Assembly (NCBI GenBank): GCA_035623825.1
Contig: DASPSR010000023.1
Coordinates: 1 to 28,167, forward strand
Direction: 5' to 3'
DNA from: Nitrospirota bacterium
Lineage (GTDB): Bacteria > Nitrospirota > UBA9217
Length of the DNA: 28,167 bases
Each line of letters opens with the position of its first letter. The stretch's first letter is position 1. This document shows, piece by piece, positions 1-9,612 of this stretch. The notes under the pieces were generated by a model. It was not told where the DNA came from. It searched no databases and worked only from the letters and a program-made list of their open reading frames with translations. A program made the position numbers and the translations under genes.

Positions 1-321
1 AGTATTCAAGTCGATAAGCTCAACATTATACTCTTTAAGAAGGCGCAGATACCCGAAGTTCTTATATGCTTCGTGTGTATCGTAGCACGCCGCCTCCGCA
101 ATGATGATTTTGTCCTGGTAAAAGCTCGAAAAAAAATCAAGGATACCTCGTATCTGGTCTACATGGCTCGATGCAAGCTGTATTGTTGAGGAAACGAAGT
201 TGGGTTTGATCACAGGTCGCCTGGATCTCAACCCTTTTTTAACGTCATCGGTGATAAGATCAAGTGATCTTTTCGCAATTGTTCTCCTATCATCTCCTTT
301 TATTAGTGACACTCGCGGCAT
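1..321 (-). CDS. DUF362 domain-containing protein (N-terminal part; runs off the window edge)
   Basis: Not in the ORF track. Manual translation from ATG at 321 gives MPRVSLIKGDDRRTIAKRSLDLI...RPVIKPNFVSSTIQLASSHVDQIRGILDFF...KIIIAEAAC...FGYLRLLKEYNVELIDLN, open to base 1. The IKPN, IIIAE and VELIDLN motifs are typical of DUF362. Confidence 0.8.
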   Translation of the reverse strand, partial: MPRVSLIKGDDRRTIAKRSLDLITDDVKKGLRSRRPVIKPNFVSSTIQLASSHVDQIRGILDFFSSFYQDKIIIAEAACYDTHEAYKNFGYLRLLKEYNVELIDLNT

Positions 322-465
322 GTGGATTTTATTGTACTTTTGTTCAATCTTTTCTCGATCGACGAGATTAATTTTAGTATAGCAAAAAAGAAAAACACTG
401 ATGTGGTATTCGGGGAGTGTTGATGATGTGACAATAAAGAGCAACTCAAAGGACAAGATTTCGAT

Positions 466-514
466 ATGAAACATACATCCCGGTGTGTCAGTCAAAAACA
501 ATAACTACAGGATG
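466..514. repeat. Dispersed intergenic repeat, copy A (partner at 23568-23616)
   Basis: atgaaacatacatc-N8-tcagtcaaaaacaataactacaggatg matches 23568-23616 at 39 of 49 positions in an ungapped manual alignment. Confidence 0.75.
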
Positions 515-773
515 CTGCATTGGAGTTAAGGACAAGCTTAACTACAATAACTTCATGTAGAAGTCTCTCTTTTCTCGTCACAGGGCTGCCTTTTTCACTG
601 ACTGGAAGCCTTCAAATGGGTGACTAATAAATCTCATGACCTGGCATTGGGGCTTTCTACCCGAAGGTCTTCAATTCTGCTTCAGCGTGTTTTCAGCGCC
701 GCAGTCCGCAACCGTTTCGATTCGCCATGCCGCTCAATCCGCCAATGAAACCGCTGTTCCCGGGGTGGCGCGG

Positions 774-1280
774 TCAGATATCCAGGGTGATCGTCTTTTT
801 CGACGTCCTCAGCTTCGACTCAATGGCGGTTCTCAATTCGCTCAGGGAAAGGTCTCTGTTCTGCCCCTTCAGGAACTTCTGCATCGTCACCAGCGCATCA
901 TGTTCCACATCGAACGATAGGGGCCGCGACAGGTCGCCCACGATTTTCACCTCGCACCTGATGGTCCTCTTCTTCCCCTTCACCGCTACTTCCAGGTCCC
1001 TCTGTTGGAAGGTGATTTGCTGGAAGACATGGAGAGTGTCGATGCGGTGATACCCCGAGACTTTCAACTCTCGGGCGAGAAAACGCGCGATGACCCCCTC
1101 CTTCGCATCATCGGTGTCTATGATGATGATATTGCCCGGACGGTTTTTCTTGGTGATGCTGGAGACCAGCTGCACGTTGCGTGCGCCTAGTTCCATGATC
1201 CGCCCGATTGCGAAGCCAGTCACCTCGCCGGATACGTGGTCCACCTGTGCGAAGAGGAGGCGTGCCTTCTTCTTTTTCAC
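774..1280 (-). CDS. LarC-family (DUF111) nickel-insertase C-terminal-domain-like protein, stand-alone
   Basis: FAQVDHVSGEVTG...MELGARNV...ITKKNRPG and late DVEHDA match the LarC2 pattern (ETNIDD..GE...GAxDV...MKKxRPG; KPEYED). There is no His-rich N-terminal LarC1 part. The GTG start overlaps the upstream TGA (GTGA). Confidence 0.75.
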   Translation of the reverse strand: MKKKKARLLFAQVDHVSGEVTGFAIGRIMELGARNVQLVSSITKKNRPGNIIIIDTDDAKEGVIARFLARELKVSGYHRIDTLHVFQQITFQQRDLEVAVKGKKRTIRCEVKIVGDLSRPLSFDVEHDALVTMQKFLKGQNRDLSLSELRTAIESKLRTSKKTITLDI

Positions 1281-3049
1281 GAGAACACCAGCCCCTTCAT
1301 AATATCAGACGCCAGACGGGCGGCATGCTTGATATTTGGCGCAGGCAGTGCCAGCAGCACATCGGCAGCAGCCACCGCCTCCTTGGCTGCCGCATCAGGG
1401 TCCATTCCCATGACAGCCGCCATGCAGGCGCAGACGGTGACATCCAGAGAGGAGGCACCGGAGCAGAGCAAATCGATGATAGCGGGGGAGACCGCTGAGA
1501 TGGCGTCGATGGTCGCTTGGTCGGCGTTCATCAGGGCCTCGGGTGCGGCCTTTGCGAGGACATTGTCGAGACGATGGATCTTGCCGTCAATCTTTACCTC
1601 CACATCCACATAGGCGTCGAAGGCAAAGTGGCGCTGGGCAAAGACATGGGACCTCCGGCCCGACCCGGGCCGGACCTCCCTGAACCGTATGTACTCTATA
1701 TTGCGGCCGAGCCTTTTGCTCATCGCCTTTGCGACAGTCACTTCCAGTGATCCGATGAGCCTTTCCTGTGCGCCGCGAACTACCTCACGCAATGTCTTGC
1801 CGAGCTTCATATCGGTATAGGCTTGAAGAGCCCTCACAGCAACCGCATTGGTGAAGCCGGGCTCGGTGGCAGCAAGAATAGCATCCGTTACGGGACCCCG
1901 CTCGACGGTATCAGCCTTGCGGGCCAAAACGTTGGTGGCGGTGATGGCCTGGTCCCGCTGAAAATGCATGTCCATGGTCTTGTTGATGACGCCGATTATC
2001 TCCTCCTGAGGCGCTCCCTTACCCATCAGGTACAGGGCCAGCGTGGGCGAGGTGACCCAGTGATGTAGGGGTATCACCAGCGGTCCCCCGGACCTTCCCG
2101 CTCCGATGACTGAACCTTCCTGGATGATCGAACACAGCTCGGCGAACATAATCATTCCCACCACCGTTGGGGTTCCCGAGTCCTTGAGGATGATGGCAAG
2201 GTCCCCCACCACCCGTGCGGTGTTCAACTCCTCCCCGGTACCGCGGACATGGACAACGGCTGGAAGCTCAGCCTCCTCCACTGCGGCTTGGGCGATGGTC
2301 TCCGGAGTTCTCGTCACCATGAAGCTCCCGAACTCCTCGCCCACGTAAGCATCGGGATGAATGATCTCCAATGCCGCCGCGGCCCCATACAGGGCGGAAA
2401 ACCAGCGGTTCGGTTTCATGCCTGCGGAACCATACGCCTTGATCATGGCCTTCGTGCCAATACGGCTTAGCTTCTGTCCGAGCTTGGGAAATAGGTGGTC
2501 TTCGCCGATGGCTGAATGTCCGATGATGGGGCCGCCAGCGCCCAGCGGCAGGAAGCGTGAATCATAAGGGGCAAGGTGCTCGCTCTCTAAGGCCTGGTAA
2601 ATGGCGAGCGTCGCGGCAAAACCTGATATCTTGTTGTTCTGCTTCTCCGTAGGCATAGAGGAGATGCGGCCCGAGGGGATACCTGCGGCCATCCTCGTCA
2701 CCGCACCCAGTTTTCGGTTCGGGCAAGGCATGCCACACTGCACGTTCACCCCGGCCCAATACAGAAGAACTGCGGCGCAGAGCCCGGCGTTGGCCGGATC
2801 AGCGCCGCACTCCATCAGTTTCTTGACCGCCTTCCTCGCAATATCGTCCACATCGGTGTGGGCCTCGTCGGAGGGTTCGAGCTTCATATGCCTGCCCCTC
2901 CGCATCTCCCTGGCTATCACATTTGCCGCGGCCCAGATGCCGATATTGAAGGCGCCCCATCCGCCGAGACCGGCTTCGAGCTTGTCCACTGTCAGGTAAT
3001 CAGGCCGCGCAGTGACAGCCCTGAAAACAGCTATGATTTCACGTTCCAT
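1277..3049 (-). CDS. Conserved-looking protein of unknown function (590 aa)
   Basis: Long ORF with RBS (AGGAGA) and operon spacing of 34 bp after the methyltransferase and a 4-bp overlap with the larC-like gene. Motif-like segments: NRKLGAVTRMAAG, NNKISGFAA, IIGHSAIGED, LEIIHPDA, GDLAIILKD. No family I can name. Confidence 0.9.
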   Translation of the reverse strand: MEREIIAVFRAVTARPDYLTVDKLEAGLGGWGAFNIGIWAAANVIAREMRRGRHMKLEPSDEAHTDVDDIARKAVKKLMECGADPANAGLCAAVLLYWAGVNVQCGMPCPNRKLGAVTRMAAGIPSGRISSMPTEKQNNKISGFAATLAIYQALESEHLAPYDSRFLPLGAGGPIIGHSAIGEDHLFPKLGQKLSRIGTKAMIKAYGSAGMKPNRWFSALYGAAAALEIIHPDAYVGEEFGSFMVTRTPETIAQAAVEEAELPAVVHVRGTGEELNTARVVGDLAIILKDSGTPTVVGMIMFAELCSIIQEGSVIGAGRSGGPLVIPLHHWVTSPTLALYLMGKGAPQEEIIGVINKTMDMHFQRDQAITATNVLARKADTVERGPVTDAILAATEPGFTNAVAVRALQAYTDMKLGKTLREVVRGAQERLIGSLEVTVAKAMSKRLGRNIEYIRFREVRPGSGRRSHVFAQRHFAFDAYVDVEVKIDGKIHRLDNVLAKAAPEALMNADQATIDAISAVSPAIIDLLCSGASSLDVTVCACMAAVMGMDPDAAAKEAVAAADVLLALPAPNIKHAARLASDIMKGLVFS

Positions 3050-3083
3050 GATCTTTCTCCTACACAGGATTCGGACGCAAGGC

Positions 3084-4112
3084 TCAGACAGCCCATTCCC
3101 TCGCTACCCGCATGAACGCATGTATGTTTTCGTACGGCACACCGGGTGGGATGTCGCAGCCGGGCATGAGGATGAAACCTCCTCGAGTGCCGACTTTCTC
3201 GATGACATTACGGCACGCGTCCTCGACATCCTGTACCGTGCCTCTCAGGAGGACGTTCACCGGGTCCACATTCCCCGCAAAGCATATGGTGCCATGCAGT
3301 ATCTCTTTGGCCCGAACCATGTCCGTCTTGTGATCAAGGCTTATGCAGTGCACCCCTGTCCGGGGATAGAGGTCCAGCCGGTCCGTGGTGTTGCCGCAGA
3401 TATGCAGGATGGTACGCGCCCCTTTTCCGGCTGCCCAGCTGATGAAATCCTGCAGTTGGGGCAGCACGAATTGTTCGAACTGCTTTCTCGATATCAGATC
3501 CCCCGAGGCCGTCGGCTCGCCAAGCAGAATTAGGTCAAGAAGGCCAGGCGACAGAAGCGGTTCGTAAAAGAGCTTTAGCATGCTGACAGCAAACTCCGTC
3601 ACCGACTTCACTAGGCCGGGATTCTTGTAGAGCGCTTTCATCATGGCCTCTTCGCCGACCAGCCGTGCTCCTAGGGTAAAAGGCCCCCACGCCGTCAGCG
3701 TCACAGCATAGTTACCCAGTGCTTTGCTTACAACGCCATAGGCCTGACGAATGGTGGACAGAACGGGATCGCTGCTGATCCGCGAAAGATCGAGTCCCGT
3801 CAGGTCGGATTCCGCATGCACCAGGGTGCCTTCGAGGTCAGGCGTTCCGACATCGCGGTAGTTGATTGCGCATCCGAGTGCTGCAACAGGGAAATTGGGA
3901 TACCCGGAGCCCACGTAGACGATATCGCTCTTAAGCCTGTCAGCCATCTCCGTGATCATCCGGGCCATAAGGGATGAATCAGTTGACATTTGTTTGAAGG
4001 AAACACCGTATTCGCGCGCACTCCATGTGCCCGCGCCAATGAGAGCCGCCGGAATACGATCCGCCGTTTCGCGGTTCAGAGCCCTGTCTATCACTTCACG
4101 GGGCGTTTCCAC
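3084..4112 (-). CDS. UroD/MtaA/CmuA-family methyltransferase (methylcobamide:thiol MT2-like)
   Basis: GPFTLGARLVG, EPTASGDLIS, LHICG, AGNVDPV and MPGCDIP; the H-x-C...C zinc motif is intact. Probable start is GTG at 4112 with AGGAG just upstream (the ORF track starts at 4133). Confidence 0.88.
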   Translation of the reverse strand: METPREVIDRALNRETADRIPAALIGAGTWSAREYGVSFKQMSTDSSLMARMITEMADRLKSDIVYVGSGYPNFPVAALGCAINYRDVGTPDLEGTLVHAESDLTGLDLSRISSDPVLSTIRQAYGVVSKALGNYAVTLTAWGPFTLGARLVGEEAMMKALYKNPGLVKSVTEFAVSMLKLFYEPLLSPGLLDLILLGEPTASGDLISRKQFEQFVLPQLQDFISWAAGKGARTILHICGNTTDRLDLYPRTGVHCISLDHKTDMVRAKEILHGTICFAGNVDPVNVLLRGTVQDVEDACRNVIEKVGTRGGFILMPGCDIPPGVPYENIHAFMRVAREWAV

Positions 4113-4235
4113 TCTGCTTCTCCTGCCGTCCACACTAAATATACCATGGGAGATTTACCCAGTCATAAAGACATCAAAAAGACTCTCGCTAAGCTCTCAT
4201 AAATTATCTTCGAGCTAATAATTAATCAGAGATTG

Positions 4236-4274
4236 ACTTTATCACGATTTGTAAGGCTGGTCAAATTAATTTGA
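4236..4274 (-). promoter_or_regulatory. Putative sigma70 promoter of the methyltransferase operon with an overlapping palindromic operator
   Basis: The minus strand reads TTGACC-N17-TAAAGT. A perfect 14-bp palindrome TCAAATTAATTTGA (4261-4274) overlaps the -35 box. Confidence 0.5.
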
Positions 4275-4617
4275 AAAAGCGTCTTATCTATTATTTATTT
4301 TATCGAATACGCGGCTGTTGGATGATGTTCGATTTAGCGTATTGAACAGTTTTCACTCAGTATCAGAAATAATCAAAATTACGACCTTGGAGTCCTCTAC
4401 CCGAATGCTTTCTGGATTAATTATAAATATGTTAGTTGCGTGAGTGGTATTTTGCCTCGGGATTGGCAGGTTGCTCATGCTTGAACCCGGGACGGGAATG
4501 CGTCGCCGTAGAAGATAACCTTGTTTCTGGGAAAGCGCTTGGCGAAACGGGCGGCACTCACCTCTCCCAAGGCAAAGTCTCCGCGACGCCTTGTGATGTT
4601 TTATATTGGCAGTTCCT

Positions 4618-5931
4618 TCAGACAAGACAGGATTTAAACGTCTTCAAATGCTTAGGATTTCCTTTGAACTTGATGCTACCCGTAATCATTACCCTAACAG
4701 GCGATATCTCTTCATTGAGCATGCGCACCCACGCTTCCGCATCGGCCCGGATACGCAGATCGGCAATACCCTGATGGCCCTCGCTGACAATAATTTTCCG
4801 ATTGGCAATATTGATGGTTGCCTCCCGCTCGGTACCGCCTGTGAACGTAAACTGCAGGTTCAGCTTTACTCCTTCAGCCTTCTCAGGATTGAACAGTAGC
4901 GTAACGCCGTCCAGGAAGCTTCCAATCGAAGCGGGCCTAATTGTATTCTTGACGTAGCGAACGGTCTTTGCCGTGTTTGACCGGGCTGTCTTTTCAGCCC
5001 GTGTTCCCTTTATCACATAGACCGGCTCCCTTTTCTCGCGCAGCGGTCTGACGATGGCTTGAACATAAGCTTTCTTGTCTCTACGGTACGCCTCCACTGT
5101 TTCTTCGCCTGCAGGGCAGACTGCCATACAATAGGAGCATCGGTAGCTATGACCGTATGTCAGGGATTCCCATTTTGCGATGGTCTCGTAGTCGCGGAAT
5201 TGGGCGCGATACGACCGGACGCTTCCCGATGAGACGATCTTTTCAATCCATTCTTGAAATCCTCCGAACAGTTCGTGATAATTATGCATCGCACAGGACA
5301 TGAAATCCAGGCCTTCGTCCATGCGAATCGCCCCCACCGGACATACGGAGATGCACAGTCCGCAGCGAAAACAAGGAGATTCCGGTAACGGCTGATCATA
5401 GCGGTCGAGAGGAACATTGATCAATATCGTATCTAGTATGACGTGATTGCCAAACTTCGGGTGGATTATCACCCGGTGTACGCCCATCATGCCGAGACCG
5501 GCCTCCGATGCCACAATCTTGTGGCTCACTTCCCAGAGTTTTCCCGGCCAGCGGGTGGTATCCATGGGAAAGGCGGGCGGCACGGCAATGCCGCGTATTC
5601 CCTTCGAGTTCAGACGTCGAATAATCCGGAAAGCGGCATCGGCCAGGCGCTCAATGGTCTTTGCGAATTCCCAGTCGGCAACCGACGTCGACGGGCTGGT
5701 AACGCTTTCGCGGTTCGCCCGTACCAGAAGGGACACGGCCGTGGCTGCCCCGGGGAAAATCCTCAGCATAGCATCGCGCTCCGGCTCGAGCGCAGGACGG
5801 CCAATATCGACAAATCCAGCGTCATCCGCGCCCTCCTCAAGACAGATTTTTCGAAGATCGTCCGCGGACAGTGTATTGTTGCAGCAGTCCTTGTTTGCCA
5901 GATCGACGAGTTTGTGATCATTAGCATTCAT
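4618..5931 (-). CDS. Epoxyqueuosine-reductase/reductive-dehalogenase-like 2x[4Fe-4S] protein with C-terminal SCP2 sterol-carrier domain
   Basis: N-terminal GADDAGF, SHKIVASEAGLG..G..IIHPKFG, CFRCGLCISVCP, C...CSYCMAVCP. The C-terminal FNPEKAEG..LQFTFTG...ADLRIRAD...GSIKFKGN is SCP2-like. Confidence 0.82.
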   Translation of the reverse strand: MNANDHKLVDLANKDCCNNTLSADDLRKICLEEGADDAGFVDIGRPALEPERDAMLRIFPGAATAVSLLVRANRESVTSPSTSVADWEFAKTIERLADAAFRIIRRLNSKGIRGIAVPPAFPMDTTRWPGKLWEVSHKIVASEAGLGMMGVHRVIIHPKFGNHVILDTILINVPLDRYDQPLPESPCFRCGLCISVCPVGAIRMDEGLDFMSCAMHNYHELFGGFQEWIEKIVSSGSVRSYRAQFRDYETIAKWESLTYGHSYRCSYCMAVCPAGEETVEAYRRDKKAYVQAIVRPLREKREPVYVIKGTRAEKTARSNTAKTVRYVKNTIRPASIGSFLDGVTLLFNPEKAEGVKLNLQFTFTGGTEREATINIANRKIIVSEGHQGIADLRIRADAEAWVRMLNEEISPVRVMITGSIKFKGNPKHLKTFKSCLV

Positions 5932-5939
5932 GATTTACT

Positions 5940-6084
5940 TGACCTCCCCCCTGATTATTGTACCAGGTATAGTGTCGGATTTTTTGGTTGGATTGCCTAT
6001 GGAGCCGTGGGGGCGATAACCCATAGCGCTGTGTGGATGGATGTAAGCATACTCCCACCTCCACATTTCAATCAAGACTTTGAC
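5940..6084 (-). mobile_element. IS3-family remnant: transposase C-terminus plus right terminal inverted repeat
   Basis: KVLIEMWRWEYAYIHPHSAMGYRP matches the IS3 integrase-core tail (IExWRxxYNxxRPHSSLGYRPP). It is followed by CTGGTACAATAATCAGGGGGGAGGTCA, a typical IS3-family end terminating in CA at 5940. Confidence 0.75.
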
Positions 6085-6378
6085 TGGAAGATACCAAACA
6101 AGGATGAAACTTATCTTATTTTTAAACTTTAGCACCAAGCCGCCAGATTGTCAACACGGCAGAGAGAGCAGGAGCGGGAGTTCCGCTCGGCGTGGAGAGC
6201 TAGGACTAGAGTTCCGGGTAACTTAATGAGACGGAAGGAGCATGCTATCTTCAAGGCATTGTTTTTAAGAGGTCTTGGTGCCTTCTGGCCGAGGACCTAT
6301 CCTGTAGATCACATAAACAGTGGAAATATTGACGTATTATGCCCAATCGTCTTTATTTAGCTTATGGGGGGGTACGGT

Positions 6379-6411
6379 AAAACAAGATCAACACCGCGGT
6401 CGCGGAGTTGA
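6379..6411 (-). terminator. Possible intrinsic terminator downstream of the Rdx gene
   Basis: Hairpin TCAAC-A-CCGCG/CGCGG-A-GTTGA followed on the minus strand by TCTTGTTTT. Confidence 0.35.
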
Positions 6412-6482
6412 GCGTGCGGATATCGCTTAGACAAGCACGTAAAAAATAGAGCGGGAAATAGCAGTGTTGATGCGCGAAGCAG

Positions 6483-6722
6483 TTAAGGATTTTCTGGCTT
6501 TGTCTTCAAGATACCAACAATTTCATTGAAGTCGGGAAAGCGCCTCGTCGCTTTTTTGGAAAATATCAGTTTATCATCTACCGCAACCTCAAAGGCGCCA
6601 ATCTCCTGAGAGTGTATTAATTCGGGTTTCATGCCGATTTCTGTTTCTATTAGGCGAGAAAGGCTGGCAGCGATCGGCCTGTAATTGCAGGTGCCGCAAT
6701 ATGATATGGACAATTTCTTCAT
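6483..6722 (-). CDS. Rdx family (SelW/SelT/SelH-like) redoxin, Cys homologue
   Basis: ISYCGTCNYRP...GAFEVAVDDKLIFSKK..RFP carries CxxC where selenoprotein homologues have CxxU. ATG at 6722 has a GGAGG RBS. Confidence 0.85.
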   Translation of the reverse strand: MKKLSISYCGTCNYRPIAASLSRLIETEIGMKPELIHSQEIGAFEVAVDDKLIFSKKATRRFPDFNEIVGILKTKPENP

Positions 6723-6879
6723 ATTTTTATCCTCCATGGCTGCTTTCAAGATATGCACTATTGGCAATCCTAGGGAGACGACGGAGTCGTTTGCCTTTTT
6801 TTTAAAGAAGATTAACCGAAAACTGAACTATATTATAGCAGACCGATTGACAAGATATCACCCTGCCACGCGACCGCGT

Positions 6880-8802
6880 CTACTCATCGAACTTGATGAT
6901 TTTTCTGTTTTTCATGATATGGGCTTCTATCTCGTCCGCTGCCTTCACAGGATCTTCCTCGCAGAACAATCTGCCGCCGGTCACATTGACCAGATCTTGT
7001 GTCAAATATTGCACTACCCGTGGGCTTCCGCTTATCATCGGCTCAGGTGACACATAGGTGAGCAGGCCGTAGGAAAGAGCGGTGAAGATGTCGGCAATCG
7101 CCTTCTGCTCCATGTATTCGGGTACGGCCGCTGCAACGGGCAACTCGCTCGAATCGCAGCCAATCGTCCAGCACAGGGCAGCCACGGTATCGAGGATTTT
7201 CCCCACGTCGGTGCATGAACCGTAGGAGACGATAGGCGGCACATCATATTTTTCACAGATCGACCTCAGTTCCGGCCCTGCGTGTTTCGCCATCTCCTTT
7301 GTCGAAAGGCCGAGATTCTGGTGGGTTGAGGAACAGCATCCCGCGCCGATAACCATGATATTCCGTTTGATTAATTCCATTGTCAGCTTGTGGATCGCGT
7401 TTCCTCCCTGTCCATGGCGGACGGTAGTGCAGCCCGCGACAGCCACCGCGCCCTTTATGTTTCCCTTTTTCATCTCCTCGATATAGCTGTAGATGCTGTT
7501 GCCGAACATCTTGAGCACCGTCTCGGTGGTATATCCTGCGATGCAGTTGGTCTTTGTCTCGTGTGAGGGTAGGTTGACGATCCTCTTGCTGCCATTCCCG
7601 CGCCTCGACCTAAACTGTTCGATTGCGGTCTCTACCACCTGCGTCGCCTGTTTGTCTGCGATCTCGGGATCGAAATCAAGCGTGTCGACGTCGGGGAAGC
7701 GTACCACGGGGTCCGTACTGATCAGCTTCGTGCCGTATTTGTCGGCAAAGGTCTTCAATGTCGGTACCGAACAGTTCATATCCATCAGAAAGAGATCGAC
7801 CACGCCGGTAGCGATAAAGAGCTCTTCCTGAATCCAATTGCCCAACTGCCCGCCGAAGACATTTGCGTATTCACCACGGCCGGACACGTTCATGAGCTGC
7901 TGTCCCTCGCAAAGAGAGCCGTAGAGCTTTATGCCCTTTGCGCCAGCCTTTTTGGCCTGGGACTGGTAGCGTTCGCTGCCGGCCTTCTCCATGATAAGGC
8001 TTGCAAACAGCGGCTGATGGCCGTTGGCGATGATATTCACCGTTTCCGGATCGAGACAGGCGATGTTATTTTGTCCCGGGACAAGGTCTGCGGTCCCCAT
8101 AATGATGTCTTGCATGACGGTGATTCCCCAAAGCGCAACGTACTCGTTTGCGTTGCCGAGTCTCAGCGCGGTCTTGAGCAGGTCGATCGGATCGTTGCTC
8201 ACATTGGTCATGCACTTTGTCAGCGCTGTAAGTATCTCTGAACTCGTCCCACCGGGGTAAAGCCCCTCTTTTTTCCAGACTTCCTTCCTTCTGTCGAGCG
8301 CAAAAAGGTCCATGAGCTTGAGAGGATCATTGACCGGCTTGGCGATTTCATTGAGGATAAAGTCGGCAAAGATGACGGCGAGTTCGTTTGCCGGTTTCGT
8401 GTGGTCGATCCCAAGGCCTTGACACATACGCTGGAGTTTTACCTCGTCCTTTATCCGGAGAGGTGACCTTCCCTCGCCGATCGCCTTTAACGTGTTGGCG
8501 AGATTACGACACTGGTACGTGTTTGCGGCAGTGCCGATGATCGCCAATTGAAGCAGATTCCGTGCGACGATCAGGTCGCCTGTGGCGCCGCAGACGCCCA
8601 GAGGCGCCTTCGCGCTGATTCTGCAAGGGCCGTCGGAACAAAGCTGACAGCTCAATCCCTTCCTGCAGTGACCGCACTGCGGCTGCTGCGCCTCGAAGCG
8701 CTCAAATACCGTGCTCATGCCCTGAGAGAGTGCAGCCATATGCACTTCATGGCTCTGCACATCTTGATGTCTTCCGTTTACGAGCGGTTTATTTTTTGTC
8801 AT
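6880..8802 (-). CDS. cooS: Anaerobic CO dehydrogenase catalytic subunit-like protein (CODH/HCP superfamily), divergent
   Basis: QPQCGHC...CQLCSDGPC...GVCGA (D and B clusters); NGHQP, LCEGQQ, DMNCS, AGCTT, AGCCS and GSCTD (C-cluster ligand positions); EYMEQKA. ATG at 8802 follows AAGGGGGG. Confidence 0.9.
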   Translation of the reverse strand: MTKNKPLVNGRHQDVQSHEVHMAALSQGMSTVFERFEAQQPQCGHCRKGLSCQLCSDGPCRISAKAPLGVCGATGDLIVARNLLQLAIIGTAANTYQCRNLANTLKAIGEGRSPLRIKDEVKLQRMCQGLGIDHTKPANELAVIFADFILNEIAKPVNDPLKLMDLFALDRRKEVWKKEGLYPGGTSSEILTALTKCMTNVSNDPIDLLKTALRLGNANEYVALWGITVMQDIIMGTADLVPGQNNIACLDPETVNIIANGHQPLFASLIMEKAGSERYQSQAKKAGAKGIKLYGSLCEGQQLMNVSGRGEYANVFGGQLGNWIQEELFIATGVVDLFLMDMNCSVPTLKTFADKYGTKLISTDPVVRFPDVDTLDFDPEIADKQATQVVETAIEQFRSRRGNGSKRIVNLPSHETKTNCIAGYTTETVLKMFGNSIYSYIEEMKKGNIKGAVAVAGCTTVRHGQGGNAIHKLTMELIKRNIMVIGAGCCSSTHQNLGLSTKEMAKHAGPELRSICEKYDVPPIVSYGSCTDVGKILDTVAALCWTIGCDSSELPVAAAVPEYMEQKAIADIFTALSYGLLTYVSPEPMISGSPRVVQYLTQDLVNVTGGRLFCEEDPVKAADEIEAHIMKNRKIIKFDE

Positions 8803-8824
8803 ACCCTTACCCCCCTTTAGTCGC

Positions 8825-8868
8825 ATGATAACAGGGAGAGACCGGTATCTTTATGATATAAATCATAA
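8825..8868 (-). promoter_or_regulatory. CRP/FNR-family-type binding site centred at about -41.5 plus extended -10 of cooS
   Basis: Perfect inverted repeat TTATGAT-N4-ATCATAA at 8851-8868 and TGT-TATCAT extended -10 (hexamer 8825-8830), giving class II activator geometry. Confidence 0.7.
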
Positions 8869-9612
8869 GCGTCTGGAGAATAAAGCGCAGAGAGCCATCT
8901 CATTCACTCGGTAAGAATGGAAAATGGCGAACTCCTCGGCGGAGACAATGAGGCACGTCCAGCAGACCACCAAATATACGCAGTCCCTGACCTTTAAGCT
9001 GAGATGTCCCTTCTCTACGAGCTCGGCTTCGAGGCCCACTATAGAGTGGCTCGGCGAGAGCAGGCAGAAGCAGCACGGCCAAAATAAATGCAGGGGGTAT
9101 AAGCCATGATCTCCAAGCCTGTGTTGAGACGAATGAAATTTTCGGTTAAATGAATGCTGAGAGCGGAATTACCTAAGTGGAAAAAGCCACGAAGTCCACG
9201 AGCGGATAGTGGCTGATACAGTGAATTGCCTTAAACTGCTATCGACCCTACAGATTTTTTACCTGATGTTTTGCTAATAGGTAAAATAGGGGTTTGAAGA
9301 TACGATAAGGGATTTGATAATATTTATCCAATTGCTCTTTTGGCATAGGGAGGAGCCACACGGTTGACAAAATCATTAAATAATCCTTAAATTTTTAGAT
9401 ACTCGTTATGTGCTGGCAAACGCTGACCCATGTGCAGCAAATCCCAGTGACGGCATGCGCCAATGGAAGCATGATACATACCGTTGATTGACGGTCCGAT
9501 GGCGAGGCGAGCTGTTGAGTGATTTTCGATACCAGGAATGCCGTCTGCTTGATAATTCTTGCTTTAGCCGCGGTAAAACGCCACACAAAAAACTTGCACT
9601 TTTGTTTTACTG

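Follow-up and report, generated by a model that had tools for sequence, protein, structure and literature searches.

A clade D CooS homologue from a Nitrospirota bacterium belongs to an Asn-type subfamily associated with corrinoid methyl-transfer genes

The cooS-like gene and its active-site residues

A stretch of 28,167 nucleotides at the start of contig DASPSR010000023.1 of a Nitrospirota bacterium (assembly GCA_035623825.1), referred to below as the window, carries a cooS-like gene on its minus strand (positions 6880..8802; 640 aa plus stop codon). By profile match and phylogenetic trees its product was assigned to an Asn-type subfamily of clade D of those carbon monoxide dehydrogenases that contain nickel (Ni-CODHs). 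Nine sequencing runs are listed for this DNA, all of them DNA and all labelled peat metagenome. The ATG start codon at 8802 is preceded by a Shine-Dalgarno-like AAAGGGGGG, and no such site was found before the start of a longer open reading frame (ORF) beginning at 8826. The product of ORF 6880-8802 scored 447.6 bits against Pfam PF03063 (cut-off 27) and 622.3 bits against the NCBIfam CooS equivalog model TIGR01702 (cut-off 478), which places it in the CooS family, and it fell far outside the hybrid cluster protein (HCP) model TIGR01703, with 34.6 bits against a cut-off of 360.8. It is an iron-sulfur protein with the CooS fold, cytoplasmic and a member of Ni-CODH clade D. A promoter/terminator consensus scan of positions 500-9600 gave 9 terminator-like sites versus 8.2 expected and was not used.

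The protein was aligned by HMMER with CODHs of solved structure and in a multiple alignment. Residues are compared in the numbering of CODH-II (with His93, His96, His99 and His102), counted on the gap-free alignment of P0138 with CODH-II; all coordinates given for the cooS-like gene are on the minus strand. Codons read directly at 8494..8523 give the helix N94-T-Y-Q97-C-R-N100-L-A-N103 at the site of these four histidines, exactly as in the original prediction, in which all four were regarded as lost proton-relay residues. The HMMER alignments set N94/Q97/N100/N103 opposite H..H..D..E of the Desulfovibrio vulgaris CODH and CODH-IV, and opposite Y91..H94..E97..K100 of CooS-V, and P0138 has H-H-H-E at the corresponding positions of the multiple alignment; a His was restored at neither 93 nor 96. 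All four positions are indeed replaced. However, His was found to be conserved only at 93 and 96 in the canonical CODHs sampled (n=19), in which positions 99 and 102 vary. In the subfamily of the window protein, N-Q-N was found in 49/49 cluster representatives covering the helix, and position 102 is N in 34/49. Since positions 99 and 102 vary in canonical CODHs, and 102 also within the subfamily, the meaningful loss is that of His93 and His96, and since N-Q-N is present in every representative, the replacement is not a matter of chance or decay. Of the acid-base pair, His93 is replaced by Asn94 and Lys563 is kept as Lys567.

The six cluster ligands and the catalytic Lys, predicted earlier to be retained, were all located. 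The N-terminal Fe-S motifs (8590..8676) comprise C43-x2-C46-x5-C52 and the B-cluster cysteines C52, C55, C60 and C71. The D-cluster motif C43-G-H-C46-RKGLS-C52 is of 'type III' (Cys-x2-Cys-x5-Cys), with Ser51 at the column of CODH-II Cys47, and by analogy with CooS-V, in which the same CxxC motif binds it, a subunit-bridging [2Fe-2S] D-cluster would be expected. The C-cluster ligands are (i) H262, equivalent to His261, within N260-G-H262 (8017..8025), where Asn260 takes the place of the first His of the canonical HGH, (ii) C298, equivalent to Cys295, (iii) C344, equivalent to Cys333, and (iv) C458, C489 and C530 (7213..7431), equivalent to Cys446, Cys476 and Cys526. They are kept across the subfamily, with one Ser at the Cys333 column among 51 representatives. 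Cys298 lies within GSLCEGQQ (7897..7920), which aligns opposite GLCCTGNE of the D. vulgaris CODH. The extra Cys of this motif, CODH-II Cys294, has become Leu297, in agreement with the loss noted earlier, and Thr296 is replaced by Glu299, at a column that is Ala in 8/51 representatives.

For the second sphere, 43 full-length subfamily members were set against the 19 canonical CODHs and against four further groups of clade D. N94, Q97, C98, N219, N343, Q566 and D571 are at least 95% conserved among the 43 members, the canonical residues being H, H, A, D, Q, E and I, respectively; Leu297 in place of Cys294 is likewise fixed (≥95%). All of clade D shares Asn343 for Gln332 (in N343-C344, 7771..7776), Gln566 for Glu562 and Asp571 for Ile567 (both in E565-Q566-K567-A-I-A-D571, 7090..7110), as well as the Glu two residues ahead of the Lys (Glu565 ahead of Lys567, like CooS-V Glu556). 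Asn94 for His93 is confined to the Asn groups, Tyr being found elsewhere in clade D. Asn219 (8146..8148) is common to all three Asn-type groups, at a column that is Asp in 89% of the 19 canonical sequences; this Asp219 we take to be the partner of His93 in CODH. Gln97 for His96 and Cys98 for the canonical Ala are unique to the window subfamily. At the gas-gate position, Ile was found in 89% of the 19 canonical CODHs and Asp in all clade D groups sampled; the available part of one report describes Ile567 as conserved in all characterised CODHs and as gating the access of CO and O2 (PMC13703895). Taken together, the metal-binding shell is CODH-like, and the catalytic shell is of the clade D type, modified further.

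Phylogenetic position and relation to known enzymes

In a search of 5.8 billion proteins, the subfamily was delimited as 51 cluster representatives at 70-91% identity, with the next relatives at ≤52%. A second search, in a 50%-identity library, returned the subfamily as one representative, followed by P0059 (52%), P0123 (43%) and P0124 (39%); P0123 (710 aa) is of the Firmicute D-2 type, and P0124, with Tyr93 and Glu295, of the D-1 type. The best solved relative of the window protein is 7b7q (CooS-V), with an E value of 1.5e-141 and residues 19-633 aligned. It lies far ahead of the Thermococcus CODH2 (1e-109), CODH-IV (4e-104), the D. vulgaris CODH (1e-94), CODH-II (5e-78) and the Rhodospirillum rubrum CODH (1e-71).

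Trees were built with FastTree (97 rows, 15 rows with more than two gaps in the site pattern having been left out) and with IQ-TREE (39 rows). CooS-V itself was not included, and the Glu295 type was represented by P0124. Clade D, comprising 53 rows in the FastTree phylogeny and containing the reference P0110 (Clostridiales bacterium PH28_bin88 SY88_05410, Inoue D-3), had a support of 97 with FastTree and 96 with IQ-TREE. The Asn clade was supported at 98 and its core at 95, respectively, and the window subfamily at 100 in both, with a stem of 0.44 and 0.57. Within clade D, FastTree placed first the Tyr/type-II group, then P0124, then the Asn clade, which is made up of the window subfamily, the Firmicute D-2 type (100) and a type-II Asn group that includes P0059; these three Asn groups form a polytomy in both trees. 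The window protein, whose placement in the CODH phylogeny had been proposed as a check of the original prediction, is thus a member of clade D and belongs to its own tight subfamily within an Asn-type branch that also holds D-2.

The structure 7B7Q is that of CooS-V of Carboxydothermus hydrogenoformans (Jeoung 2022, PMC9311411), which is listed in clade D, structural group D-1, in the part of Inoue 2019 available (PMC6344411), and which the accessible text of a later paper gives as the only clade D enzyme characterised as of mid-2026 (PMC13592312). CooS-V was described in the original prediction as lacking CO-oxidising activity, and according to the published account the protein contains no Ni, neither oxidises CO nor reduces CO2, carries a redox-morphing [4Fe-3S-nO] cluster with very low potentials and slowly reduces NH2OH (PMC9311411). 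Its Glu556 is a ligand of the hybrid cluster, and its Asn337 forms a hydrogen bond with a cluster water. The change of Cys295 to Glu is held to be a prerequisite for the hybrid cluster and a synapomorphy of the CooS-V subclade, and it correlates with a change of Gly to Cys that gives the CxxC [2Fe-2S] bridging D-cluster (PMC9311411).

The window protein is like CooS-V in its CxxC D-cluster motif, which includes the Gly-to-Cys change (C46), in Ser at Cys47, in Glu-Gln-Lys with an equivalent of Glu556 (E565), in Asn before Cys333, in Asp at Ile567 and in the absence of His93. It is unlike CooS-V in that it keeps Cys298 (= Cys295), the Glu being the next residue (299), whereas CooS-V has Glu at 295 itself, and in having Asn and not Tyr at 93, Gln and not His at 96, and the extra Cys98. 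Because Cys295 is kept, the window protein is not a CooS-V-type enzyme by the criterion of Jeoung 2022. The kinship with CooS-V drawn on in the original prediction therefore holds at the level of clade D and of the best solved relative, but does not extend to this defining residue.

A match in signature is provided by group D-2, which has a type III D-cluster, full C-cluster ligands, Asn for the acid-base His, and the Lys kept (Inoue 2019, Table 2), and whose representative in the same source is WP_015926279 of [Clostridium] cellulolyticum. The D-2 proteins listed in Supplementary Table 1 of that paper are all from Firmicutes and are 688-714 aa long, and their genes look solitary in the few rows of its context table. 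The window protein has exactly the same signature and falls in the same Asn clade in both trees (98 and 95). However, P0116, P0117 and P0123 (708-710 aa), which are of this type, share only 43-44% identity with it, carry His at position 96 and Gln at position 99, and make up a separate branch; the window protein also lacks the additional length seen in D-2. No Asn-type entry from Nitrospirae, Nitrospinae or deltaproteobacteria appears in the clade D lists of Inoue 2019 (Supplementary Table 1, parts 17-18). The His-to-Asn signature is thus already in print, as a D-2 catalogue entry without known function. It had been taken earlier as a sign of chemistry different from that of CO dehydrogenase. 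As far as this means that the protein is not a canonical CO dehydrogenase, the view is reasonable, because of the kinship with CooS-V and the shared clade D second sphere, but the pattern itself is not new.

The type-II Asn group, represented in the part of Inoue 2019 available by one 'others' entry (Omnitrophica OGX46221), contains the nearest neighbours after the subfamily (~50% identity) and shares Asn93, Asn99, Leu-Cys-Glu and Glu-Gln-Lys with it. It differs in a CODH-II-like D-cluster motif (Cys, Gly, Cys) and in the retention of His96. With canonical CODHs (1SU6, 6B6V and a second CooS of the same genome) the window protein shares the fold family, the B-cluster Cys, His261, Cys295/333/446/476/526 and Lys563, but His93, His96, Asp219, Cys294, Gln332, Glu562 and Ile567 are replaced and the context of CooC, CooF, ACS and hydrogenase is absent. 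HCPs share PF03063 and a Glu two residues before the Lys, which corresponds to HCP Glu494 in the accessible part of Inoue 2019; in contrast, the sole HCP among the PDB matches had an E value of 8.5e-4, and the window protein has the CooS-type domain order and the dimer-bridging cluster motif.

The source names of the subfamily members are Nitrospirae, Thermodesulfovibrionales, Deltaproteobacteria, Nitrospinota and Alphaproteobacteria metagenome-assembled genomes (MAGs), and at ≥70% identity the subfamily spans Nitrospirota, Nitrospinota, Desulfobacterota and Rokuibacteriota. Of 151 genomes sampled from the phylum, 3 carry it, and none was found in another genome of the same genus (86% complete); yet records bearing the titles Nitrospinaceae, Desulfobacterales and Rokuibacteriota hold copies with 71-76% identity. 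This patchy distribution suggests lateral spread of the gene. Three of the loci deserve comment. The 88%-identical cooS of a long-contig MAG (L004:8001-9917) has an open frame of 586 aa, and the tblastn match continues to residue 639, which suggests a frameshift or an assembly error near its 3' end. Two further loci, L015 and L016, come from records titled Nitrospina sp. and Desulfobacteraceae but agree in gene order around cooS on the ORF map, so that one of the bins may be mislabelled.

Gene neighbourhood of the subfamily

The gene neighbourhood was compared in 24 loci, namely the window and 23 genome loci with 71-88% identity, with flanks of 8 kb. Neighbouring ORFs were clustered, the clusters were annotated by Pfam and NCBIfam, and occurrences were recounted by tblastn, which exposed two antisense shadow ORFs. 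The most frequent neighbours are genes for an MtaA/CmuA-like corrinoid methyltransferase of the URO-D family (below, MtaA-like) and for DUF1638 proteins (112 bits), each found in 13/24 loci, followed by SelW-like genes in 8. Seven loci each contain a gene for an AcsV-like RACo (512 bits on the AcsV model, cut-off 800), a corrinoid protein (TIGR02370, 186 bits) or a LuxR regulator; a PAS histidine kinase and a CobW/HypB-like GTPase are each encoded in 6, DUF2284 and a ~900-aa protein with a weak VWA end each in 5, and LarC2-like proteins and B12-type ABC transporter parts each in 3. RACo is an ATP-dependent reductive activator of corrinoid proteins. At least one of the MtaA-like, corrinoid protein, RACo and DUF1638 genes is present in 17/24 loci, and this corrinoid link is seen in loci from three phyla.

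Several layouts recur. In 10 loci, cooS is followed after 33-261 bp by DUF1638 on the same strand, and RACo lies directly upstream of cooS, on the same strand, in 6. In L013, L017 and L018 the order is 900-aa protein, DUF2284, MtaA-like, corrinoid protein, RACo and cooS, and DUF1638 then follows in L013 and L017, but not in L018. In L010, L020 and L025, an MtaA-like/CobW-like unit and a kinase/regulator pair are divergent from cooS-DUF1638; L004 and L019 have the same upstream unit, with DUF1638 located 3-4 kb downstream, after the LarC2-like gene. L019 and the window share the order cooS, MtaA-like, a gene for a 590-aa protein, and LarC2-like. The ~900-aa protein (L013:3-2699, L017:185-2923, L018:124-2823) heads its operon and has only a weak C-terminal VWA match (E 9e-4). 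Selenoprotein-named NCBIfam models matched below their cut-offs, with 121 bits for CobW_rel_Se and 42-45 bits for ArsM_DUF2284_UU / MbdU (L020:2472-3502, L017:3114-3857).

As a control, a metagenome scan was seeded with a type-II Asn protein, and 6-kb flanks were searched by tblastn with probes taken from the subfamily's own neighbours. The resulting 80 sister-group loci comprised (i) 17 of the type-II Asn group, (ii) 58 of the Glu295 type, (iii) one Tyr type II and (iv) four partial loci. Probes for the MtaA-like methyltransferase, the corrinoid protein, RACo, DUF1638 and CobW gave no match in any of the 80, and the LuxR probe gave one; D-1-type loci, to which CooS-V belongs, are therefore without these corrinoid neighbours (0/58). 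Pfam annotation of 34 neighbours in 7 of the 80 loci likewise revealed no corrinoid families. The type-II Asn genes have another setting: in the four loci checked (L067, L071, L074 and L078), a pyridine-nucleotide-disulfide oxidoreductase gene with a Rubredoxin_C end lies directly downstream (4/4), accompanied by hemerythrin in two, an Rrf2 regulator in one and a CooF-like ferredoxin in one. This layout, with an NAD(P)H oxidoreductase and no corrinoid genes, is reminiscent of HCP/Hcr.

In the 151-genome phylum sample, DUF1638 was encoded in 10 genomes, including all three carriers of the subfamily, and it adjoins cooS in one of them (G143). Five out of five further carrier genomes without such adjacency encode DUF1638 and RACo elsewhere. 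The phyletic-profile test has little power, because only 3 of the 151 sampled genomes carry the subfamily. The association with corrinoid genes is conserved and specific to the window subfamily, and the link between a CooS subfamily and corrinoid methyl-transfer genes is new. No paper linking clade D CooS with RACo, DUF1638 or corrinoid activation was found in the literature covered, with the supplements of Jeoung 2022 and of the bioRxiv papers outside its scope. The accessible parts of newer structural-group work, including Inoue 2022, hold nothing on the window subfamily, and the supplements just named may show an Asn-type branch. According to the available text of a 2026 preprint on CODH gene context, clade D shows no clear pattern (10.1101/2025.09.14.676152).

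In the window itself, which begins at the contig start, all genes from cooS to the DUF362 gene are on the minus strand. The MtaA-like gene (3084..4133) is followed by the gene for the conserved 590-aa protein of unknown family (1277..3049), which lies between it and the LarC2-like gene (774..1280; it corresponds to the C-terminal region of PF01969, the 'nickel insertion protein' family), and by a DUF362 gene cut by the contig end, of which the N-terminal part remains (1..501). The MtaA-like and LarC2-like assignments rest on profile matches, and neither gene was mentioned in the original prediction. As in L019, the order MtaA-like, 590-aa, LarC2-like follows cooS, and the 590-aa gene overlaps the LarC2-like gene by 4 bp. 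None of the 17 neighbouring ORFs scanned with Pfam and NCBIfam in the window matched cooC, cooF, cooT/J, ACS or hydrogenase, which bears out the earlier statement that no such gene is adjacent.

Between cooS and the MtaA-like gene lie two further minus-strand genes. The first (6483..6767) encodes a SelW/SelT/SelH (Rdx) protein with a CGTC (CxxC) motif, whose start is uncertain (TTG at 6767, ATG at 6737 or ATG at 6722); with CGTC and no in-frame TGA it is not a selenoprotein gene. The second (4618..5931) encodes a 437-aa Fe-S protein in which a two-[4Fe-4S] region, resembling the one in QueG and reductive dehalogenases, is joined to an SCP2 / alkyl-sulfatase-C domain at the C terminus; no counterpart was found near cooS in any of the other 23 loci. 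On the other side, 4 kb upstream of cooS, there is a cytochrome P460 gene (12654..13250, minus strand), which was rejected as a functional partner, since P460 is near cooS in 0/23 related loci.

The 590-aa family is 589-590 aa long and 53-90% identical across MAGs labelled Nitrospirota, Nitrospinota, Desulfobacterales, Desulfotomaculales/Moorellales and Thermoleophilia; in L004 the region expected for this gene is broken into small ORFs. The window protein of this family had no Pfam/NCBIfam match and no usable Atlas match, and its AF2 model (pLDDT 83.7) gave no Foldseek match in the PDB at E≤0.001, the best VIA match having a Z of 6.2, inside the noise range for helical models. It and the ~900-aa protein encoded in the 'type A' operons show no similarity.

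The genome assembly is 89.65% complete and consists of 67 contigs. It contains two PF03063 genes, both of them cooS, and no HCP gene was found in it. The second CooS (contig C13, L003:4572-11870) is canonical, with His93/His96, CCT, S-E-K, the Ile gate and a CODH-II-type D-cluster motif, and its gene lies directly after NuoE/NuoF/NuoG-like genes, with which it possibly forms an NAD(P)-linked CODH module. One ACS (CdhC) match (contig C22), four RACo-like, one DUF1638 and six URO-D-family genes were also found, and the host appears to be an anaerobe that uses the Wood-Ljungdahl pathway and has several systems of corrinoid methyltransferases.

Possible function in corrinoid reactivation

For DUF1638 of Phaeobacter inhibens, the available text of one study describes cofitness with a split MetH and a RamA-like activase and the same phyletic profile, and gives no mechanism (10.1101/192971). 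DUF1638 is regarded as part of cobalamin reductive recharging in the accessible part of a 2025 paper (PMC12478193). The RACo/AcsV, RamA and DUF1638 systems contribute partner genes that stand beside the subfamily, and a CooS-like partner is not mentioned in the parts of these two sources available. In the cooS-adjoining DUF1638 copies (L017:10021-10608 and ten orthologues), Cys11, His39, Cys70, His71 and Cys91 are invariant, which hints at a metal or cluster site. Complex prediction for the CooS and DUF1638 of L017 gave a score of 0.00 in two runs without controls, which speaks neither for nor against binding.

The reading that we favour, and to which we give an even chance, is that the protein does not work as a CO dehydrogenase and serves instead as a low-potential redox partner in corrinoid reactivation. 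The active site would no longer serve physiological CO/CO2 conversion, and the protein would be a low-potential redox enzyme working with a corrinoid (B12) methyl-transfer system, its gene being linked most tightly to RACo and to DUF1638, the latter tied genetically to B12 reactivation. The active-site cluster would exchange electrons, by way of the B- and D-clusters, with RACo or the corrinoid protein, which would hold cobalt as Co(I); alternatively, the enzyme might remove a small oxidant that would inactivate Co(I). Only tentatively do we propose that the subfamily could be a dedicated corrinoid-activation component, an enzyme on a CODH scaffold placed between RACo and DUF1638, supplying very low-potential electrons for the Co(II) to Co(I) step or reacting directly with methyl-corrinoid at a re-tuned Ni/Fe-S cluster.

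A number of observations weigh against a redox role in corrinoid reactivation. None of the four corrinoid families occurs in 7/24 loci (L005, L014, L015, L016, L021, L022 and L023). In the window, neither RACo nor DUF1638 adjoins cooS, and the sole corrinoid link is the MtaA-like gene 2.7 kb downstream, separated from cooS by two other genes and two gaps of ~0.5 kb; the contig ends 6.9 kb downstream of cooS. The 24 loci are kin, so that their counts overstate independence. The control may miss distant homologues, because its probes came from the subfamily's own neighbours and its flanks were shorter (6 versus 8 kb), and its Pfam check covered 7 of 80 loci. Moreover, adjacency gives neither the direction of electron flow nor protein contact. 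Finally, all six ligands are kept, including Cys295 and the equivalent of the Ni-binding Cys526, and CobW/HypB-like GTPase (6/24) and LarC2-like 'nickel insertion' genes (3/24) lie nearby; given these ligands and metallochaperone-like neighbours, a Ni-containing cluster and CO chemistry are both conceivable.

The last points lead directly to the view that the protein is still a Ni,Fe CO dehydrogenase, in which the full ligand set would build a C-cluster and Asn/Gln and water would replace the His relay, and which would oxidise CO or reduce CO2, with electrons of very low potential possibly passing to the corrinoid system. Co(II) corrinoids can be reduced by the CO2/CO couple, whose potential is sufficiently low. 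Besides the nearby genes just named, the six ligands with Lys563 and the score above the CooS equivalog cut-off are in keeping with it, and two reports, each available in part, caution against equating a changed second sphere with inactivity: a clade C enzyme has been reported as needed for growth of Thermoanaerobacter kivui on CO (10.1101/2025.09.14.676152), clade C having Tyr/Gln for His93/Lys563 (Inoue 2019, Table 2, PMC6344411), and in the I563E variant of Tc CODH2 roughly a quarter of the wild-type activity remains (PMC13703895). Because of that clade C enzyme and the activity of I563E, the missing His and the Asp gate are no proof of inactivity. On the other hand, the subfamily has fixed replacements at each of His93, His96, Asp219, Gln332 and Ile567, and CooS-V, the nearest characterised relative, has neither Ni nor CO activity. 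CooC, CooF, ACS and hydrogenase genes are also absent from the annotated neighbour families common to at least 3 of the 24 loci, as they are from positions adjoining cooS in the window, and the genome already has a canonical CooS and ACS. On balance, an active Ni,Fe-CODH seems to us fairly unlikely.

In the original prediction, the protein was envisaged as an HCP-like reductase acting on hydroxylamine, NO or peroxide against nitrosative or oxidative stress. Such a role, which we hold to be decidedly unlikely, would agree with the HCP-like morphing cluster and slow NH2OH reduction of CooS-V (Jeoung 2022), with which the window protein has the Glu two residues before the Lys and the Asn before Cys333 in common. 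The same paper, however, reports no detectable NO reduction by CooS-V and a very slow NH2OH turnover, and holds necessary for the hybrid cluster a Glu at the very position where the window protein keeps Cys295; the weak TIGR01703 score is also at odds with HCP identity. The lack of an HCP gene in the genome (89.65% complete) leaves room for such a function, and the NAD(P)H oxidoreductase (4/4), hemerythrin (2) and Rrf2 (1) genes adjoining the type-II Asn sister group, as well as the cytochrome P460 gene 4 kb away, could be taken as signs of it. The conserved neighbourhood nevertheless lends it no support: P460 recurs in 0/23 loci, no N-oxide or stress family is found among the neighbours common to at least 3 of the 24 loci, and corrinoid genes are present in 17/24. 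N-oxides inactivate cobalamins, which could reconcile a reductase of this kind with a corrinoid neighbourhood.

That the gene is a non-catalytic or regulatory remnant, such as a redox sensor or a decaying paralogue, is very improbable: auxiliary or regulatory roles have been proposed for clade D, and a redox sensor for clades C and D, in the available text of one preprint (10.1101/2025.09.14.676152), PAS histidine kinase and LuxR response-regulator genes adjoin cooS in 6-7 of 24 loci, and the distribution is patchy (3/151 genomes), but in a subfamily that spans four phyla the ligands are fixed, as are the second-sphere substitutions, the frame is intact and has a ribosome-binding site, and the adjoining regulators are read more simply as operon control.

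The subfamily has consequences for the way in which CO metabolism is read from genomes. Its proteins are named 'anaerobic carbon-monoxide dehydrogenase catalytic subunit' in databases, and surveys that filter on cluster cysteines alone, as appears from the accessible part of one of them (PMC13240472), would score them as CO oxidisers; such miscounts would fall in Nitrospirota, Nitrospinota, and peat or subsurface communities. With all metal ligands kept and the catalytic second sphere replaced, the subfamily is a natural experiment on the conversion of a C-cluster site. The link to RACo and DUF1638 makes it a testable candidate for the physiological reductant of corrinoid activators, and offers a lead to the role of DUF1638. 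Should a part in corrinoid activation prove true, the CODH fold would have a third function in addition to CO/CO2 conversion and HCP-like chemistry.

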